Source: Candidatus Roizmanbacteria bacterium
GTDB lineage: Bacteria; Patescibacteriota; Microgenomatia; UBA1406; GWC2-37-13
Assembly: GCA_016214055.1 (NCBI GenBank)
Contig: JACRPE010000011.1
Location: forward strand, 793-64,792
Length of the DNA stretch: 64,000 nt
Reading direction: 5' to 3'
Shown here piece by piece: positions 17,695 through 55,836 of the stretch (position 1 is the first letter of the stretch; each line of letters starts with the position of its first letter). The notes below the pieces were generated by a model. The model ran no database searches and was not told the DNA's origin. It worked only from the letters and a program-made list of their open reading frames with translations. Position numbers and translations under genes: made by a program.

Positions 17695-17715
17695 CATACG
17701 GTATAATAGTCAAAT

Positions 17716-17774
17716 GCTGAGGTAGGGCTCCGAGTCGGAGCCTGGTCCCGCCGTCCGAATCGGACGGCACGGCG
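17716..17774 (+). repeat. Copy A of a tRNA-derived repeat (5' portion only)
   Basis: gctgaggta-gggctccgagtcggagcc-tggtc-ccgccgtccgaatcggacggcacggcg is nearly identical to the first ~58 nt of the element at 18247-18351, then diverges into the GIY-YIG gene leader. Confidence 0.75.
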
Positions 17775-17803
17775 AAAGGTTGTTAAGATTGTTAAAATAG
17801 AGT

Positions 17804-18058
17804 ATGTTTTTTACATATATTTTACAATCAGAAAAAGATAAGAAGCTGTATATTGGCTTTACTGATAATGTTGAAAAGAGATTGGAAGAGCATAATGAAG
17901 GTATAAATATTTCAACAAAATCACGAGCACCTTTTAAATTATTGTATTACGAAGCACTGCCAACCAAAGAAGAGGCTTTGCGAAGAGAAAACTTTTATAA
18001 GTCAGGAAGAGGACACGAAGTCATTTATAAAATTTTATTTAAATCACTACTGAGGTAG
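17804..18058 (+). CDS. Small GIY-YIG (URI-domain) nuclease family protein
   Basis: FFTYILQSEKDKKLYIGFTDNVEKRLEEHNEG..ALRRENFYKS has the GIY/YIG, R and E core motifs. Its stop codon TAG lies inside repeat copy B. Confidence 0.8.
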   Translation: MFFTYILQSEKDKKLYIGFTDNVEKRLEEHNEGINISTKSRAPFKLLYYEALPTKEEALRRENFYKSGRGHEVIYKILFKSLLR

Positions 18059-18082
18059 GGCTCCGAGTCGGAGCCTGGTCAC
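18050..18082 (+). repeat. Copy B of the tRNA-derived repeat (33 nt)
   Basis: ctgaggtagggctccgagtcggagcctggtcac is identical except 1 nt to 17717-17749 and to 18248-18280. Confidence 0.8.
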
Positions 18083-18106
18083 GGTAGTGATCACTGTAAT
18101 GTTATT

Positions 18107-18179
18107 GCTGAGGTAGCCAAGGTGGTCACGGCGGAGGTCTGAAAAACCCCAGATGTCAGTTCGACTCTGACCCTCAGCA
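18107..18179 (+). tRNA. tRNA-Phe-like (anticodon GAA), 73 nt
   Basis: gctgagg/cctcagc acceptor, gcc-aaggtggtcac-ggc D arm (3 bp), gaggt-ctgaaaa-acccc (one A-C mismatch), gtcag-ttcgact-ctgac T arm, discriminator A. Confidence 0.6.
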
Positions 18180-18246
18180 CAGCTTATATAAAACGTTCAA
18201 GAGTTATATAGGATAGAGTATAACCAAGGATTTTCGCATTATTTAG

Positions 18247-18351
18247 TCTGAGGTAGGGCTCCGAGTCGGAGCCTGGTCACGCCGTCCGAGTCGGACGGCA
18301 GGGCGGGGGTCTGAAACCCTCCGAATCGGAGGGCGACTCTGACCCTCAGCA
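18247..18351 (+). ncRNA. tRNA-like element / tRNA pseudogene whose arms are three GC-rich GANTC-centred hairpins
   Basis: It shares (t)ctgaggta...tggtcac and ...cgactctgaccctcagcac with the tRNA at 18107-18179. It carries ggctccg-agt-cggagcc, gccgtccg-agt-cggacggc and ccctccg-aat-cggaggg in place of normal D, anticodon and T-5' segments. Confidence 0.45.
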
Positions 18352-22256: not shown

Positions 22257-23033
22257 TTAAAAAACAAATAAAAGTATTATTGCCAATGCAATTCTATAAA
22301 TACCAAAAGCAAATAGGGAGTTTTGTTTCAAATATCCAATAAACCACTTCATAACCACGTAGGCAACGATAAATGATGTGATGAATCCTACCAGTAATAA
22401 TGGCAAATATTGGACTGATGATCCGATCAGACTTCTCATCTTGAAAAGGTCATATGCAGATGCCGCAAGGATGGTGGGGACCGCAAGAAGAAACGAATAA
22501 GTGGCCGCCTCGTCGCGTTTGTACCCCTGACCCATGAGATAAAACATCACAATTCCCGACCTTGAGACTCCAGGAATGACCGCAAGAGCCTGCATCAATC
22601 CGGTTAGAACAGCCTGTAACGGAGTCAATGATGATAGTGAATGTTTTAAAATAATTTTTTTCTTTGAAATGAAGTATTCAAGAATAATAAAAAGCAAACC
22701 TACGACAAAAATTGCGTCGATGATAAGCATGTTTGAAGAAAAGAAAATATTTTTTATCATTTTATAGAGAAAAAGGCCGATGACCGCGGTCGGAATGAAT
22801 GAAAAAATAATTTGTTTAATGAGAGCCTTGTGTTTCAATAGATACTGAGAATAAAGAAGAACGACCGCCAAAATAGCCCCCGATTGTATAAACACTTCAA
22901 AGAATTTCATGAAATCAGTTTGTGATAAATGAAGAAGTTTTGCGGTTATGATGAGGTGTGCCGTCGATGAGATGGGGAGAAACTCGGTCAACCCTTCAAT
23001 GAGGCCTAAAACAATTGAATGAAATATATTCAC
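22257..23033 (-). CDS. uppP: Undecaprenyl-diphosphate phosphatase
   Basis: IVLGLIEGLTEFLPISSTAHLII and PGVSRSG motifs of BacA/UppP. Confidence 0.85.
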   Translation of the reverse strand: MNIFHSIVLGLIEGLTEFLPISSTAHLIITAKLLHLSQTDFMKFFEVFIQSGAILAVVLLYSQYLLKHKALIKQIIFSFIPTAVIGLFLYKMIKNIFFSSNMLIIDAIFVVGLLFIILEYFISKKKIILKHSLSSLTPLQAVLTGLMQALAVIPGVSRSGIVMFYLMGQGYKRDEAATYSFLLAVPTILAASAYDLFKMRSLIGSSVQYLPLLLVGFITSFIVAYVVMKWFIGYLKQNSLFAFGIYRIALAIILLFVF

Positions 23034-23045
23034 GACGTATATCTT

Positions 23046-23127
23046 GTCATGCTGAATTTATTTCAGCATCTTTAACTTCTCTCAATATGCCTATTGACCA
23101 TAGATCCTGAAACAAGTTCAGGATGAC
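23046..23127. mobile_element. Double-hairpin MITE-like element M1
   Basis: GTCAT-gctgaa..ttcagc-ATC ... GAT-cctgaac..gttcagg-ATGAC. Near-identical to M6 at 48510-48566. Confidence 0.7.
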
Positions 23128-23152: not shown

Positions 23153-24313
23153 ATGAAAATAGCTATAGTTCATGACCAGCTCCGCGAATTCGGTGGGGCT
23201 GAACGGGTACTCGTTGTCTTGAAGGAAATATATCCTCAGGCTGATGTATTCACTTCGACATTTGATCTTAATTCACTCGGTGAACATAAAGAAATAGTTA
23301 AACACTGGAATGTCCATGTATCCTGGTTTGGGAAAATTCCTTTGTTAAATAGACTTTACTCACCTCTTCGTTTTTTGACCCCTCTCATCTGGGAATCGTT
23401 TGATTTTTCAAAATATGACCTGGTGATTTCTTCAACCGGGTCCTGGATGTGTAAGGGGATCGTAACAAAGAAACCAACTATTCACATAAGCTACATCCAC
23501 CATCCCCCACGCTATCTTTACGGATATGAGACGGCGGTCGAGTGGCAGAAACATTTGATTATAAAAATATACGGCGTTTTTATAAATCATTTTTTACGCC
23601 TCTGGGATTATGAAGCATCCCAAAAACCTGACCATCTTATCGCAAACTCAATTGAGACGCAAAAGAGAATTACGAAGTTTTATCGACGTGACTCAACTGT
23701 CATCTACCCTCCAGTAAATGTCCCTTCTCAATCTGTCATTTCGAACGTAGAGAGAAATCTAGCGAAGCGTGATTATTTTATTACTGTTTCAAGATTAGCA
23801 AGAGCAAAACACGTAGACCTTTTGATAAAAGCCGCCAATAAATATCATTTCAATCTGAAGGTTGTTGGAGTAGGTCGCGATATGAAATACTTGCAATCCA
23901 TCGCAGGACTAACAATAGAGTTTTTAGGTAACGTATCTGATAAAAAATTGAAAGACCTCTATCAAAATGCAAAAGCTTTTCTGTTTGCTTCCATTGACGA
24001 GGAGTTTGGTATAGCTCCGGTTGAGGCGATGGGCTTCGGACTGCCCGTCATTGCTTATGCCTCGGGAGGTTTGAAAGAAACTGTTCACGAAGACGTGAAT
24101 GGATATCTTTTTCAGGAACAATCTGAAAAATCACTAGAGGTGGCAATGAAAAAGCTGCAATCCTTGTCAGATGAAAAATATTTGGATATGAGAAAGTATG
24201 CTCGTAAAGAATCCGAAAAATACTCTGAAGAAGTTTTTAAAAAGAAGATTATTCAACTCGTTAACTCAAAACTTCTTATTGGTCATTCCCGTGAAGACGG
24301 GAATCCATGCTAA
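23153..24313 (+). CDS. GT4-family glycosyltransferase
   Basis: EEFGIAPVEAMGFGLPVIAYASGGLKETV (E-x7-E region). The last ~10 codons (GHSREDGNPC-stop) are encoded by MITE M2. Confidence 0.8.
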   Translation: MKIAIVHDQLREFGGAERVLVVLKEIYPQADVFTSTFDLNSLGEHKEIVKHWNVHVSWFGKIPLLNRLYSPLRFLTPLIWESFDFSKYDLVISSTGSWMCKGIVTKKPTIHISYIHHPPRYLYGYETAVEWQKHLIIKIYGVFINHFLRLWDYEASQKPDHLIANSIETQKRITKFYRRDSTVIYPPVNVPSQSVISNVERNLAKRDYFITVSRLARAKHVDLLIKAANKYHFNLKVVGVGRDMKYLQSIAGLTIEFLGNVSDKKLKDLYQNAKAFLFASIDEEFGIAPVEAMGFGLPVIAYASGGLKETVHEDVNGYLFQEQSEKSLEVAMKKLQSLSDEKYLDMRKYARKESEKYSEEVFKKKIIQLVNSKLLIGHSREDGNPC

Positions 24314-24363
24314 AATCACAAATTTGTATTTATAGACTGGGTCCCCGCCTACGCGGGGATGAC
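24282..24363. mobile_element. Double-hairpin MITE-like element M2
   Basis: GTCAT-tcccg-tgaaga-cggga-ATCC ... GG-tccccgc-ctac-gcgggga-TGAC. Confidence 0.65.
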
Positions 24364-29869: not shown

Positions 29870-30617
29870 TATGACGGTTTCCCTTATTATCCCCGCGTAC
29901 AACGAAGAGGTAAATATCCAAAAAGGGGTATTGGATAAAATCAGTAACTTTACCAAAGAACATCCTGAGTTTTCGGAAGTTATCATCGTGGATGACGGAT
30001 CAACAGATGATACGAAAAACCTAATTAAGAGGGAATACACGCAGAGGTTTTCTCATTTCCGGCTTATTGAAAATAATCATGCCGGAAAAGCACAAGCAAT
30101 CATAACCGGTATAAAAGAGGCAAAATCAGACATTGTGATGTTTACTGATATTGATTTGGCGACCCCGATTGAAGAAGGTGAGAAGTTACTCAATGCGCTG
30201 AAGGATACCTATGACATAGCAATCGGATCCCGCAATACCCATCGTGAAGGAGCGCCTCTGCTCCGAAAAATTATGGCGGTTGGTTTTATTTTTATCCGCA
30301 ACTCTCTCATCGGGTTAAATAATATCAAAGATACTCAATGTGGCTTTAAGGCTTTTGAAAGAAAAGCCGCCTTAAAGATCATTGATAAACTTCAGGTTTT
30401 TAATAAACAGTCCTCAATCACCGGCTCATCGGTGAAGGCGGGATTTGATTTGGAGTTTTTATTTGTGGCCATTAAGTTAGGCTATAAGATTAAAGAAATT
30501 CCCGTCACCTGGAAACACGTTGAAACGAAAAATGTAAACTTTTTCCGTGACTTTATCGATACGATGAAGGATATCCTTGCCATCAAGTACTATGACCTTA
30601 CCAAAAAGTACGATTAA
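29859..30617 (+). CDS. GT2 polyprenol-phosphate glycosyltransferase (DPM1/GtrB-like)
   Basis: VSLIIPAYNEE, VIIVDDGSTDDT, FTDIDLATP, QCGFKAF. The start is taken at MKNNM. Confidence 0.8.
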   Translation: MKNNMTVSLIIPAYNEEVNIQKGVLDKISNFTKEHPEFSEVIIVDDGSTDDTKNLIKREYTQRFSHFRLIENNHAGKAQAIITGIKEAKSDIVMFTDIDLATPIEEGEKLLNALKDTYDIAIGSRNTHREGAPLLRKIMAVGFIFIRNSLIGLNNIKDTQCGFKAFERKAALKIIDKLQVFNKQSSITGSSVKAGFDLEFLFVAIKLGYKIKEIPVTWKHVETKNVNFFRDFIDTMKDILAIKYYDLTKKYD

Positions 30618-31998
30618 AAAAATAGCCCCTCTTTTGTTCCTTTTATTGGCGGGATGCCTTGTTGTTTTCTACCAATACTTATCAATACCGAAAAATACCA
30701 CCTTCGATGAAATCGAGTTTGCAAAACTCGCCCTTCAACTGGGGAAGCAGCCTTATGCCCCCTATAGTCAGCTTGCAACCGGCCATGCGACTCTTTATTT
30801 TTATATCATTCTTTTATCTTTTAAATTATTTGGGGTGAGTCTCTTTGCTCTTCGCCTCCCTGCGGCAGTGTTCGGAATTCTGAATCCGCTTATTTTCTAT
30901 TTAATAATGAAAAAAATATTTAATCCTTCTTGTCATCCCGAACTTGTTTTGGGATCTTCAATTAATACTAAGATGCTGAAGCCAGTTCAGCATGACAACT
31001 TTTTTTTGAAATATCAACCTTTTATCCTTTCTCTTATTTTCATCACTCTTCGCTGGTACTTTAATTTTGCCCGCTTTGGATTCGAGGTAACTTTTCTACT
31101 TTTTCTTGAACTGATGTCTTTGTATTTTATGTTTAAATATACCGATGTCATCCTGAACTTGGTTCAGGATCTTAAAAAGATGCCGAAACAAGTTCGGCAT
31201 GACAAAATTTGGTTAGTTTTCTCAGGAATATTCGCCGGTCTTGCGTATAATTCCTACCAACCCGGGAGAATATTTGTTCTGATTCCATTATTTTTATTAT
31301 TAGTCAAGGGCTTCGTCATTCCCGCCCTCCGAATCGGAGGGGGAATCCAGGCTAAAATAACATCTTTAATGTATTTTTTAATTCCCTTTTTTATTCTTAT
31401 TCTTCCCCTCATCATCTATCTCAATATTCACAAGGACACCCGCTTTTACCAGCAGTTTTATCCTGATAACCACGAGATGACACTGGACGAAAAGGGTCAA
31501 TTTTTTATGCGGAATCTTTCATCTACGGCGGGTATTTTCCTTGTGAATGGAGATGTAAATGGCCGCCATAACTATCCTAATAAAGCGGCGCTTAACCCCA
31601 TGCTCGGCGTTTTATTTCTTGCAGGGTTGCTTATTGCAATAAAAAAAATTAAAGAACGGAATAATCAGTTGTTCCTCCTCTGGTTTTTTCTTTCCCTTGC
31701 CCCGACACTCGTGACTTATCCATGGGAGAATCCAAATATGCTGAGAACATTTACAGTAATTCCATCGGTTGTCTATTTTGTTGGTCTTGCGATTAAAAAA
31801 TTGAGTGATGTTTCCATACTGCAAAAACCTGCACTTAAAAATGTCTTTATAATAATGATCTTCATGCTTATCAGTGTTTCATCACTCTATGAATTACGTA
31901 CCTATTTTGTCCATCAAGCCCAAGTGTTTAAAGAAGCGTTTGAAACAGAGCGGGATCTTATCTATTATTTAAATCCTTCCGATGTACCAAAAAAATAA
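30577..31998 (+). CDS. GT-C-like membrane protein carrying three in-ORF palindromic-element insertions
   Basis: Polytopic, with TFDEIEFAKLA after TM1. The ORF stays open across M3, M4 and M5. Confidence 0.55.
   Translation: MPSSTMTLPKSTIKKIAPLLFLLLAGCLVVFYQYLSIPKNTTFDEIEFAKLALQLGKQPYAPYSQLATGHATLYFYIILLSFKLFGVSLFALRLPAAVFGILNPLIFYLIMKKIFNPSCHPELVLGSSINTKMLKPVQHDNFFLKYQPFILSLIFITLRWYFNFARFGFEVTFLLFLELMSLYFMFKYTDVILNLVQDLKKMPKQVRHDKIWLVFSGIFAGLAYNSYQPGRIFVLIPLFLLLVKGFVIPALRIGGGIQAKITSLMYFLIPFFILILPLIIYLNIHKDTRFYQQFYPDNHEMTLDEKGQFFMRNLSSTAGIFLVNGDVNGRHNYPNKAALNPMLGVLFLAGLLIAIKKIKERNNQLFLLWFFLSLAPTLVTYPWENPNMLRTFTVIPSVVYFVGLAIKKLSDVSILQKPALKNVFIIMIFMLISVSSLYELRTYFVHQAQVFKEAFETERDLIYYLNPSDVPKK
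30932..30996. mobile_element. MITE-like element M3 (inside CDS)
   Basis: GTCAT-cccgaac..ttttggg-ATC ... GAT-gctgaa..ttcagc-ATGAC, translated as CHPELVLGSSINTKMLKPVQHD. Confidence 0.65.
31147..31203. mobile_element. MITE-like element M4 (inside CDS)
   Basis: GTCAT-cctgaac-ttg-gttcagg-ATC ttaaaaa GAT-gccgaaac-aa-gttcggc-ATGAC, translated as VILNLVQDLKKMPKQVRHD. Confidence 0.7.
31315..31348. mobile_element. Half MITE-like element M5 (inside CDS) containing a GANTC hairpin
   Basis: GTCATTCCCG-ccctccgaatcggaggg-GGAATCC, translated as VIPALRIGGGIQ. Confidence 0.6.
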
Positions 31999-46858: not shown

Positions 46859-48490
46859 ATGAGGAAAATCGTGTTTGTTCTCGTTTTTTTGTTCTTTCTT
46901 ATCCGACTTCCTTTTTTGGATAAAACATTCCTCCTTTATGATGAACGGGATACCGTCTTGACCCAATATTCACTCGCCAAAACGGGTAAAGATCTATATG
47001 GAAATAAGACTCCTTTGACATTCAGCCGCATATCTCCCCAAGCCCCTATTTTAGCTATGTATTATGGGGTTCCTTTTTGGTCTTGGGGACTTCCCAAAAC
47101 TGTCTCCATTTCCCGGTTGATTTACATGCTCCCCGCAACTCTTATTCCCTTCCTTGTATATGAACTTCTCTATGCAATTTTGAAAAGAAAAAAAATAAGT
47201 CTCCTTACCGCCGCCATTTTTTCATTCAGTCCGTGGGTCTTTCATATCAGCCGCCTTGCCCTTGAAATCAATCTGGCGTTTCCCTTATTTTTGGTAGCAC
47301 TGCTTTTCCAAGTCAAGAGAAAGCTACCCCTCTCTTATCTTTTTTACACCCTAACCTTTTTCTCCTACCAAGGCATCCGACCTCTTATCTTGGTGATGAT
47401 GATTGCGATTGAATTATTTGCGTATCTTCAAAAAAAAGAATTGAAACCTTCTGCGATACGGATCGCATCTCATATTGTGATATTTATTTTTCTTCTCCTC
47501 GCAAGCTTTGCAATCGAAGGAAATTTTCAAAAACGCGGCTCCTCTGAAATAGTTTTTTTCAGTCAGGAAAGATTGGCACAGGAAATAAATCATAACCGCG
47601 AAATATCATTATCTCCAAATTTTTTAAAAACACTGTTTGACAATAAAATAGTTGCCATGACCGATTATCTTTCAAAAAATATACTTTCAGGAATAAATAT
47701 TACATATCTCTTCAGGGATAGTGATTATGTCCCCGTATATAGTAACGGTGTCACCGGCCAGTTTTATCCTATCCTCGCATTATTCTTACTCTTCGGATTA
47801 TTTGCCCTCGGTAAAAATAAAAGGACTGACTCCTTTTTCGTCGGTTCATTCGCATTATTTGGGCTGGTTTCATCAGTTATAAATATATATTCACTCTCAT
47901 TCTCCATCCGTTCTTTATTCTCAGGTATCGGCTTTGCGTTTATCATCTCCCTTGGAATCATTGAAATATATTCGTGGCTTAAACAAAGTAAAAAGTTGAT
48001 GTATTACGGAGTGGGAGGATTTCTCATATTGCTGGTGGTATTCCAGGCTTTTTCATTTTATTACCGGTATACATTTCAGAGGCCGGTATGGCAAGCTGAG
48101 CTCTATAATGAATCCGAAAGAAAACTCGCCCTCTATCTTCTGGGCTCAAATACAAAATACTCAATCAGCACTGTAAATCCTTTCTCACATTATTTGAGCT
48201 ATTTGTTTTTGTCATCATTGACGGTGGAAGAAGTGAACGCCTCACAACACGAATTAAATAATAAAAACGCTTCCTATCGATTAAAAAATAATACTTTTTA
48301 CTCATGCAAAATCAACTCGATAGACTTGATTAAAGCTCCCGCATTGACGATACTCGATGAAGCATGCTTAACTGAGAAGGCAATAAATATACTGGAAAAT
48401 TCAACTTCTTTTTCATACGAGACAATTCTTTACTCCGATGTCAACCCGCTCCGGTCCGGAAAGGGAGTAAAATTTTATATATTTAATTAA
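46859..48490 (+). CDS. GT-C-like membrane glycosyltransferase
   Basis: LLYDERDTVLTQYSLAKTGKDLYGNKTPL. TATAAT lies 5 nt upstream of the ATG. Confidence 0.6.
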   Translation: MRKIVFVLVFLFFLIRLPFLDKTFLLYDERDTVLTQYSLAKTGKDLYGNKTPLTFSRISPQAPILAMYYGVPFWSWGLPKTVSISRLIYMLPATLIPFLVYELLYAILKRKKISLLTAAIFSFSPWVFHISRLALEINLAFPLFLVALLFQVKRKLPLSYLFYTLTFFSYQGIRPLILVMMIAIELFAYLQKKELKPSAIRIASHIVIFIFLLLASFAIEGNFQKRGSSEIVFFSQERLAQEINHNREISLSPNFLKTLFDNKIVAMTDYLSKNILSGINITYLFRDSDYVPVYSNGVTGQFYPILALFLLFGLFALGKNKRTDSFFVGSFALFGLVSSVINIYSLSFSIRSLFSGIGFAFIISLGIIEIYSWLKQSKKLMYYGVGGFLILLVVFQAFSFYYRYTFQRPVWQAELYNESERKLALYLLGSNTKYSISTVNPFSHYLSYLFLSSLTVEEVNASQHELNNKNASYRLKNNTFYSCKINSIDLIKAPALTILDEACLTEKAINILENSTSFSYETILYSDVNPLRSGKGVKFYIFN

Positions 48491-48509: not shown

Positions 48510-48566
48510 GTCATGCTGAATTCATTTCAGCATCTTGATAAGATCCTGAAACAAGTTCAGGATGAC
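48510..48566. mobile_element. Double-hairpin MITE-like element M6
   Basis: GTCAT-gctgaa-ttca-ttcagc-ATC ttgataa GAT-cctgaac..gttcagg-ATGAC. Confidence 0.7.
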
Positions 48567-53579: not shown

Positions 53580-53816
53580 TCAGACCCCATAGAGCAAAAA
53601 ACTCATGGTGATTTTAAGTGAGCGGGCAATTTTATGAAGCACGCGGACGGTTGGATTCACTTTTCCCTGTTCTATGCGGGCATAATAGGTCCGGTCGATG
53701 TGCGCCCGGTCCGACATATCTTCCTGGGACAGTTTCTGTCCCTTACGGATGGTAATAATTCTCAAACCGAGTCTTCGGTAAAAGAAGTCACCGTTCATAA
53801 TGAAAAAAACATACAA
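53580..53816 (-). CDS. XRE-family HTH regulator
   Basis: LGLRIITIRKGQKLSQEDMSDRAHIDRTYYARIEQGKVNPTV. Confidence 0.7.
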   Translation of the reverse strand: MYVFFIMNGDFFYRRLGLRIITIRKGQKLSQEDMSDRAHIDRTYYARIEQGKVNPTVRVLHKIARSLKITMSFLLYGV

Positions 53817-53963
53817 TATCGTGCAGATACTTGTCTAATGCTTATACACAACAAAAGTGGTATTTTAGCCTATTATAAAAAGATTTTTTTGACGATAGTA
53901 CTTTTACCTCAACGAGCCTGAAAAACTATTACTTTTGTTATTTCTTATTTTGCATGAATGAAA

Positions 53964-55404: not shown

Positions 55405-55836
55405 TTGAAGTATTCTATATGGAATTCAAAAAATTATATGTTGCCATTCTATAAAGACTTTACAAAGTGGTTAACTCTTAAACCAAAGCTTGATCAGCTT
55501 GTATCTTATCCAAAATTCCAAGAAGGTGATATATGGTGGTGTCACATCGGCGCAAATGTTGGTCATGAAGAATGCGGAAAAGGAAATAGCTTTTTAAGAC
55601 CAATTATTATCCTCAAAAAATTCAACCACAGGATTTTCTTTGGATTACCAACCAGTTCTAAATTAAAAGAGTCAATATTTTATAGACCAATCATGATTAA
55701 GGGGAAGCAGGTATCTGTTCTCATGTCTCAAATGAGACTGTTTGACGTGAAACGACTATATTATAAACAGGGAAAAATTGGAGATGTAGAATTGCTCAAA
55801 CTCAAGAAAGATTTTGTGAAACTCCTCTTAAAATAG
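55405..55836 (+). CDS. PemK/MazF-family toxin-like protein
   Basis: FQEGDIWWCHIGANVGHEECGKGNSFLRPIIILKK..FGLPTSS. The track start is TTG, and the real start may be an ATG a few codons in. Confidence 0.65.
   Translation: MKYSIWNSKNYMLPFYKDFTKWLTLKPKLDQLVSYPKFQEGDIWWCHIGANVGHEECGKGNSFLRPIIILKKFNHRIFFGLPTSSKLKESIFYRPIMIKGKQVSVLMSQMRLFDVKRLYYKQGKIGDVELLKLKKDFVKLLLK

Follow-up and report, generated by a model that had tools for sequence, protein, structure and literature searches.

This report concerns a family of short hairpin repeats in a 64,000-nt stretch of DNA from a Candidatus Roizmanbacteria bacterium (contig JACRPE010000011.1, positions 793 to 64,792), which we refer to as the window. Six elements of the family, M1 to M6, lie in it, and three of them (M3, M4 and M5) sit inside a gene for a GT-C membrane glycosyltransferase, which stays open and under selection. 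In our reading, to which we give a probability of roughly 0.8, M1 to M6 are members of a pan-bacterial class of repetitive extragenic palindromic (REP) sequences with a CGTC or TGTC tag, and they are gene-less miniatures of a cassette in which a GIY-YIG nuclease gene lies between two such hairpins. The host gene and the elements are as follows.

30592–31998, plus strand: GT-C (PMT_2/ArnT-like) membrane glycosyltransferase gene, 468 aa, identified from the open reading frame (ORF), homologues, fold and the ratio of nonsynonymous to synonymous change (dN/dS).
30932–30996 (65 nt), plus strand: M3, a tail-to-tail hairpin dimer, encoding CHPELVLGSSINTKMLKPVQHD.
30932–30956: M3 left unit, GTCAT-CCCGAA-cttgt-TTTGGG-ATC, with one G-T pair.
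30972–30996: M3 right unit, GAT-GCTGAA-gccag-TTCAGC-ATGAC.
31147–31203 (57 nt), plus strand: M4, a tail-to-tail hairpin dimer, encoding VILNLVQDLKKMPKQVRHD.
31147–31171: M4 left unit, stem CCTGAAC/GTTCAGG.
31179–31203: M4 right unit, stem GCCGAA/TTCGGC.
31315–31347, plus strand: M5, a solo NTS/dRS3-like unit, CGTCAT-TCCCGC...GGGA-ATC-CAG, encoding VIPALRIGGGI(Q).
31325–31341, plus strand: GC-rich palindrome CCCTCCGAATCGGAGGG nested in the M5 loop, from a second, unrelated hairpin family.
23046–23127, plus strand: M1, an intergenic dimer in which a spacer of 32 nt separates a GCTGAA unit from a CCTGAA unit; it lies between BacA and GT4 genes, which are divergent.
24282–24363, plus strand: M2, an NTS-like dimer with stems TCCCGT and CCCCGC, between convergent GT4 and MacB/FtsX genes.
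48510–48566, plus strand: M6, an intergenic dimer in which a spacer of 7 nt separates a GCTGAA unit from a CCTGAA unit; it lies between PMT-like and GT2 genes.

The plan common to these units is an unpaired YGTC tag, an 8-bp stem starting with AT, a loop of 3–5 nt and a tail led by C, with units joined tail to tail as heterodimers across short spacers. All units in the window fold as AT plus 6–7 bp with loops of 3–5 nt. M3 consists of two 8-bp hairpins with a spacer of 15 nt and M4 of two hairpins with a spacer of 7 nt, and single-strand folding of the elements gives two 8-bp hairpins with z-scores from -2.5 to -6.4. The tag is TGTC in M1, M3, M4 and M6, CGTC in M5 and M2-right, and GGTC in M2-left; across 127 copies, position -1 was T in 60 and C in 56 (116/127). 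Tails read C-CA(T/G) in M2-left and M5 and C-TT in units of the CCTGAA type, and the consensus of CGTC-tagged REPs has CCA.

We counted strict units (GTCAT, a stem of at least 5 bp, loop, stem, ATC) and found 9 in the window, against a mean of 0.39 and a maximum of 2 in dinucleotide shuffles. Relaxed rules add M5 and M2-right, for 11 units in the 64 kb. The relaxed scan also returned a unit-like stretch in the BacA gene (22551–22580), which we rejected as a chance match; it encodes the conserved PGxSRSG motif. An earlier reading of this DNA from its letters alone (the original prediction) had placed M3, M4 and M5 and grouped them with M1, M2 and M6, and both the positions and the kinship were confirmed by direct reading and by the pattern search. 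M5 does belong to the family, as an NTS-like type, and the correction that it needs is in its anatomy: it is a solo TCCCGC unit with an unrelated hairpin nested in its loop. That nested palindrome is a net gain of 9 nt relative to the orthologue P0002.

The same hairpins are found far beyond this genome. M1 and M6 have the same right unit, the 25-mer GTCATCCTGAACTTGTTTCAGGATC, and exact copies of it occur at more than 120 genome loci in Patescibacteria, Bacteroidota, Alpha- and Gammaproteobacteria, Spirochaetes, Firmicutes, Campylobacterota, Melainabacteria, Elusimicrobia, Dependentiae and Rickettsiaceae. A search of Rfam with the elements returned no family, whether at the gathering threshold or at E-values up to 10. 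Di Nocera, De Gregorio and Rocco (2013; PMC3733652) described REPs with a CGTC or TGTC (or CCTC) tag, an 8–9-bp stem starting with AT, a loop of 4–5 nt and a short tail. The elements here share with these the unpaired tag, the stem that starts from AT, the loop, the frequent heterodimers and the intragenic copies, and less clearly the short tail; more than half of the intragenic CGTC REPs were dimers or groups, encoding 20–30 residues (PMC3733652). The same authors equated CGTC-tagged REPs with dRS3 of Neisseria and with RPE-4 and RPE-6 of Rickettsia, so the likeness to Rickettsia palindromic elements that the original prediction had pointed out is closer than an analogy, RPE-4 and RPE-6 being placed there in the superfamily whose defining features the window units show. 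Five phyla are listed in PMC3733652, whereas the present host is a bacterium of the candidate phyla radiation, and here a single gene holds three copies, one of them with a second hairpin nested in its loop.

A link between such hairpins and a nuclease comes from Neisseria. Chenal et al. (2025; PMC11893778) reported that SsnA, a GIY-YIG protein of 94 aa, binds the NTS sequence CGTCATTCCCGCGMAVGCGGGAATCYRG and cuts just upstream of it, and only as single-stranded DNA. The layout is NTS-ssnA-NTS, and hairpins akin to it (SRM) lie on either side of ssn genes, which are small single-domain GIY-YIG (cd10448) genes, in many phyla (PMC11893778). M5 and M2 agree with the consensus of NTS, CGTCATTCCCGCG-loop-GCGGGAATCYRG. 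In both systems there are many stem variants across phyla, and small single-domain GIY-YIG genes bracketed by hairpins, which in our case are those of other genomes; PMC11893778 is silent on copies in coding sequences and on genomes of the candidate phyla radiation. We found no Ssn structure in the PDB by sequence, only the UPF0213 proteins 1zg2 and 1ywl.

The 25-mer led us to a locus (L072) where a 97-aa GIY-YIG gene lies between GTCAT-GCCGAA...ATC and GAT-CCTGAA...ATGAC. The L072 protein has more than 566 relatives in genomes, and we kept 80 for an analysis of their flanks. A unit lies within 250 bp of the gene in 72 of the 80 and on both sides in 41. Near the gene the density of units is 3.78 per kb, against 0.10 per kb in the remaining flanks. 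A typical cassette has a unit 10–30 bp from each end of the gene, with heads outward, and the stems are those of the window repertoire (CCTGAA, GCTGAA, TCCGAA, GCCGAA, CCCGAA, TCCCGC and TCCTGC). The order of hairpin, gene and inverted hairpin is also found in the Microgenomates group (L181, L178, L204 and L239), and the hairpins of L181 have stem and loop sequences identical to M4-right (the upstream hairpin) and to M1-left. Because their tail-to-tail heterodimer layout is that of the cassette, the doublets in the window look like cassettes in which the gene has been replaced by 7–32 nt, in the manner of miniature inverted-repeat derivatives. The parent would be two hairpins, heads outward, around a gene of about 90 aa for an Ssn-type GIY-YIG single-strand nuclease, and we infer that the doublets are mobilised by such a nuclease acting on single-stranded hairpins.

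Two inverted hairpins, separated by a short spacer and carrying an unpaired tag, are also the architecture of REPINs, which likewise are non-autonomous and copy a unit found on the flanks of a single-copy enzyme gene. The doublets could in that case have been moved by a RAYT of the IS200/IS605 family rather than by a GIY-YIG nuclease. As of 2013 no dedicated transposase was known for CGTC REPs, and the borrowing of RAYT-like enzymes was left open (PMC3733652). We nevertheless think this very unlikely. REPINs carry a GTAG tag, are served by an HUH tyrosine transposase and are almost entirely intergenic, whereas the tag here is YGTC and the link is to GIY-YIG genes. No tyrosine transposase gene flanked by CGTC units was found in that study (PMC3733652), in contrast to the 72 of 80 GIY-YIG genes with a unit nearby in ours. 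A tblastn search with approximate queries, which is a weak test, returned no IS200- or RAYT-like sequence in the window.

We now turn to the gene that holds three of the elements. The ORF at 30577–31998 is open throughout; its mechanical start is a TTG at 30577, and the real start is likely the ATG at 30592, as judged from the orthologues and from the 468-aa database entry for this protein (P0001). The original prediction was right that M3, M4 and M5 leave the frame uninterrupted, and it had quoted the encoded peptides correctly. The protein has 602 homologues in Roizmanbacteria, Microgenomates and other Patescibacteria, most of which carry PF13231 (PMT_2). The Pfam match of the window protein itself takes in only the first 50 model positions and is sub-threshold, which fits with the inserts breaking up the domain. 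An AlphaFold2 model made with 24 homologues has a pTM of 0.84, and its best structural matches in Foldseek are ArnT (5f15), AglB and PglB (oligosaccharyltransferases) and Pmt4, so the fold is GT-C. With a dN/dS of about 0.06 (against P0002 and P0006) the gene is under strong purifying selection, and the protein keeps all invariant residues. The gene is therefore functional, and the possibility of a pseudogene, which had been raised as a way for the claim to fail, can be put aside.

In the model the inserts fall where hydrophilic additions had been expected, at helix junctions. M3 (ORF residues 119–140) forms a disordered loop joining two long helices, with pLDDT below 50 over residues 120–135, and M4 (residues 191–209) and M5 (residues 247–258) are at helix junctions with lowered confidence. 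We number the three loops 1 to 3 in that order. On the positive-inside rule, and given where the DE motif lies, all three are predicted to face outward. One predicted peptide across an insert junction is KMLKPVQHDNFF.

The closest orthologues (P0002, P0004, P0006 and P0007; 77–82% identity, 408–432 aa) are without M3 and M4, and these segments are therefore insertions and not ancestral protein sequence. Against these empty orthologues the DNA alignment gives a clean presence or absence; the net gain, 84 nt for M3 and 48 nt for M4, takes in more than the palindromes. At the M5 site P0002 has the plain unit GTCATTCTCGCGAAGGCGGGAATCCAG and P0006 has none. Both M3 and M4 are present in P0003 (about 70% identity), and P0008 has an M3-like element only; among the orthologues examined, M4 occurs in the window and P0003 only. 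Between genes, the syntenic M2 site in two Roizmanbacteria-like contigs (L165 and L166) lacks the element.

We placed the window protein in a neighbour-joining tree computed without the insert columns. It is basal in a clade that is otherwise without M3 and M4, and P0003 and P0008 are in the sister clade. The window, P0003 and P0008 have the M3 flanks in common, which favours a single old insertion; several losses or replacements, all clean, would then have come later. We also considered recombination as the reason why the window shares M3 and M4 with the more distant P0003, and ruled it out because the stretch from one element to the other has no more than background synonymous identity (0.47). 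An empty M4 allele was looked for in metagenomes and none was found, and a degenerate probe for close relatives gave three contigs only, with nothing new on gain or loss.

In the DNA of four further orthologues the same loops hold other members of the class. Loop 1 has NTS-like dimers in P0005 and P0010, and the P0010 dimer at the M3 site is a different one; loop 3 has a CCCGA/TCCGGA dimer in P0008 and P0010; and loops 1 and 2 of P0033 have dimers with yet other stem types. Among 68 parseable orthologues, loops 1, 2 and 3 are expanded by at least 8 residues in 11, 20 and 5. The different class members in the same three loops, together with these expansions, mean that the loops are repeated landing sites, or else the sole places where landings survive. 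One metagenome orthologue (L249, contig Ga0066639_10037943) has loop 1 lengthened by the tandem repeat ACTACCAACTACCAACTACCAACTAC, which encodes the peptide TTNYQLPTTK, and has no hairpin element there; loop 1 therefore tolerates other kinds of insert.

Since loop length varies in many orthologues, and since one of them carries a simple tandem repeat, it could be argued that M3 to M5 are ordinary lineage-specific loop sequence, or parts of a decaying pseudogene, with palindromy that is incidental. We regard this as already refuted. It does not account for the excess of units over shuffles, for identical units that lie between genes in the window and recur in over 120 other genomes, or for the low dN/dS and intact fold of the host. 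What we see instead is a palindromic repeat read in frame in a functional gene, at a loop position, with orthologues that are empty, which is the pattern of the Rickettsia palindromic elements. The RPE-1 elements of Ogata et al. in 2000 are reportedly in-frame palindromic repeats in essential genes, where they add surface or loop peptides and function is kept. They are said to be about 100–150 bp in length, longer than the present elements, and restricted to Rickettsia; we liken the two by description only, and we know of no gene associated with RPE-1.

How a hairpin dimer can be read through was worked out by hand from the sequence. The left unit has two open frames (VILNLFQD and HPELVSG), the third being closed by the TGA in TCC-TGA. 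The right unit has one, (I/M)LKxVQxD; the remaining two run into a TGA, in GCTGAA or CCTGAA and in ATGAC. Read-through of a dimer needs a spacer of 1 modulo 3 with the left frame VILNLFQD (M4, 7 nt) and of 0 modulo 3 with HPELVSG (M3, 15 nt). It had been remarked that the right-hand hairpins of M3 and M4 are read in the same frame. They are, but this is because stop codons leave a single open frame there, and it is no sign of selection on the peptide. The inserts are probably translated along with the rest of the gene.

We looked at how often copies of the 25-mer fall in long open frames, defined as open for at least 40 residues on both sides of the copy. In the fetched loci this was so for 20 of 133 copies, compared with 72.5% of positions taken at random. 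Selection therefore acts against genic copies, yet they recur widely; they use all three open frames, and their hosts include GltB (glutamate synthase), RarA, an aminotransferase, an iron-type dehydrogenase and another Patescibacteria GT-C/TPR protein. In the present gene, copies landed in three inter-helix loops and, in our reading, survived because these loops tolerate extra hydrophilic residues, because the insert lengths are multiples of three, and because the units were hit in stop-free frames (two for the left unit, one for the right), which fixes the allowed spacer length modulo 3.

The hairpins inside the gene are far more conserved than the gene around them. Between the window and P0003, third-position identity at codons for the same amino acid is 0.46–0.49 along the gene and 0.47 in the segment between M3 and M4. 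The proportion of synonymous differences (pS) is 0.81; synonymous sites are therefore saturated, and there is no sign of recent exchange. Over M3 and M4 together, the identical nucleotides number 19/20 in heads, 12/12 in tails and 46/50 in stems, compared with 12/18 in loops and 17/22 in spacers. Third codon positions in head, stem and tail are identical at 27 of 28 sites (Fisher p about 1e-9 against all third positions of the gene). The same measure gives 14/14 for the window and P0008, and 13/13 for the loop-3 dimer of P0008 and P0010 (background 0.57); the synonymous background across these comparisons is 0.47–0.57. The intragenic hairpins are therefore held at the nucleotide level.

Selection on the hairpins within the coding sequence would be one cause, if they serve as sites for a single-strand nuclease that shapes recombination or transformation near surface-glycosylation genes, or as mRNA hairpins that pace translation from one transmembrane helix to the next; the origin by insertion would stand, but the copies would have ceased to be passengers. 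It would explain why head, stem and tail are 94% identical between the window and P0003 at saturated synonymous sites while loops and spacers are at 72%. Non-Watson-Crick pairs are mostly G-T, with 5 against 1 on the sense strand in the intragenic orthologue set (a manual tally) and 10 G-T against 3 A-C on the unit's own strand in a wider census. This excess lends weak support to a single-strand structure, equally in DNA or RNA, and the counts are small. The single G-T pair in M3 had been taken to hint at RNA. It is there, but it is weak evidence of a role at the RNA level, since it is one transition in a decaying copy and P0003 has C-G in its place. All six window elements are in or beside glycosyltransferase genes, which echoes the clustering of NTS around particular genes in Neisseria (PMC11893778); here, however, 21–52 kb consists mostly of glycosylation genes, which makes the clustering uninformative. 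Close relatives thrive without M3 and M4, and the same loops hold quite different hairpin types in other lineages. We consider selection of this kind unlikely.

Turnover could leave the same trace, with copies overwritten by gene conversion from other copies, or excised and re-inserted at the same hot spots. The differences between the window and P0003 are in hairpin loops, and several are discrete variants (CTTGT versus TTTAT and TTCAT), all of them known beside GIY-YIG genes. The tree needs several clean losses or replacements of M3 and M4, and P0010 has a different dimer at the M3 site. On the other hand, the M3 flank that is missing from empty alleles is common to the window, P0003 and P0008, which points to one old insertion; the segment between M3 and M4 is at background in its synonymous identity; and units of 25 nt are short for homologous conversion. 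We would not bet on turnover either. As to the cause of conservation, the loop variants favour conversion or re-insertion over selection on DNA or RNA function, and the shared flanks favour stable descent.

Taken further, the cassettes bracketed by YGTCAT hairpins and carrying small Ssn-type GIY-YIG genes could be a distinct kind of single-stranded DNA mobile element, whose gene-less miniatures remodel protein loops throughout bacteria, the candidate phyla radiation included, and whose intragenic hairpins are actively maintained. We offer this as a tentative and rather doubtful proposal. If it is true, active maintenance, whether by selection on nuclease or RNA sites or by a homing-like refresh, would explain stems that are near-perfect despite synonymous saturation.

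Several points weigh against reading M1 to M6 as class members derived from a nuclease cassette. The comparison with empty orthologues, which had been proposed as a check, established the insertions and did not yield their junctions: at M3 and M4 no target-site duplication or exact junction is definable, the filled and empty alleles being too diverged. Head-to-head dimers are the common form in PMC3733652, and those in the window are tail to tail. The SRM search pattern of Chenal et al. (HGTCWY-N(0-2)-YYVSBRH-N(0-5)-WNVSBRG-N(0-2)-RNCYNB) is matched in the window by M2-right only (1 match against 0.05 in shuffles); the CCTGAA/GCTGAA type (M1, M3, M4 and M6) fails it, M5 is missed due to the nested hairpin, and M2-left is missed due to the G at -1. 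The 64 kb contain no GIY-YIG gene of the L072 type. Transposition by Ssn-type nucleases was only raised as an idea, and not demonstrated, in PMC11893778. Finally, the strong conservation of the hairpins is not what one expects of a mere passenger.

Some further observations concern the surroundings of the elements. The GT4 ORF at 23153–24313 ends inside the left unit of M2 (24282–24313), so that the unit supplies its last codons and stop. At the equivalent position in L166 (about 1245–1262) we found CGTCAGGGATGAC, in which both outer heads of a dimer stand nearly side by side, and which may be a collapsed or excised element. The host gene is part of a long run of membrane glycosyltransferase genes at about 28400–48500, together with GT2 and GT4 genes. 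Four ORFs of that run have PMT_2 matches (28397, 30577, 31982 and 33102), with a sub-threshold PMT match at 46859, and its gene order is syntenic with L165 and L166.

The window has a single GIY-YIG gene of its own:

17804–18058, plus strand: GIY-YIG gene, 84 aa, single domain (PF01541, E 1.3e-18).

We tried it as the cognate nuclease and dropped it, since its 40 relatives are not flanked by GTCAT units. The protein is 39% identical to that of L072, and it is possibly a relative of the hairpin-tied nuclease class in a different, tRNA-linked subfamily. The gene lies between tRNA-Ile and tRNA-Phe (17714–18350). The 5' part of tRNA-Phe, CTGAGGTAG, is present in three copies (17717, 18050 and 18248), with GC-rich palindromes replacing the tRNA loop sequence, and 18248–18350 resembles a whole tRNA-Phe copy with three hairpins at loop positions. 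Among the 40 loci of its relatives (L124–L163), at least 25 by manual count have, on the strand of the GIY-YIG gene and no more than about 150 bp from it, a gene for a tRNA (of varying identity) or a tmRNA. In several loci (L124, L125, L139, L143, L151 and L153) a duplicated 5' tRNA fragment with a hairpin is upstream and the intact tRNA is downstream. The arrangement resembles a mobile cassette that inserts into a tRNA gene and rebuilds it in doing so; a literature search found no description of a tRNA-restoring GIY-YIG cassette.

The hairpins at this locus belong to the second family, the one nested in M5. Each is a perfect palindrome of 15–17 nt around CCGA(A/G)TCGG, with outer bases that are variable but complementary. 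CCGARTCGG occurs 7 times in the window, which is 38% G+C, with 6 occurrences around the GIY-YIG/tRNA-Phe locus and one in M5. The palindromes are at 17730, 17755, 18063, 18261, 18286 and 18321, plus 31325–31341, and always in the loop of another structure (M5 or tRNA-like). In L125, at about 2955–2975, one lies in a tRNA D-loop with CAAG on both sides, possibly a 4-nt target duplication.

Two other features of the window may be listed:

12674–12756: tRNA-Ser (anticodon TGA) called by ARAGORN; the Rfam tRNA model is silent at the gathering threshold, and the feature overlaps an opposite-strand ORF at 12424–12768.
55405–55836: PemK/MazF-type toxin gene (PF02452, E 7.8e-07), with a small upstream ORF (53634–53921) that has no Pfam match.

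Earlier publications already describe the repeat class, its intragenic copies and its association with a small GIY-YIG nuclease. Absent from PMC3733652 and PMC11893778 are a gene from the candidate phyla radiation with three copies, the repeated independent colonisation of the same loops, the frame rule set by stop codons, the clear relation of miniature to cassette in the CCTGAA type, and the strong conservation of hairpins within genes.

The hairpins known as dRS3/NTS and as RPE-4 and RPE-6 thus also colonise the coding sequences of small genomes of the candidate phyla radiation, where the same loops of a surface-glycosylation enzyme have been lengthened repeatedly. For annotation, this accounts for the poor domain-model scores of such proteins and for the HPELVSGS, VILNLFQDL and MLKQVQHD peptides in unrelated proteins. 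The cassette of a GIY-YIG gene flanked by hairpins is a concrete proposal for the parent, and bears on the question from 2013 of what moves the CGTC-tagged repeats. That the intragenic hairpins are conserved so unexpectedly well offers a way to test whether they are of use to the cell or to the repeats themselves.

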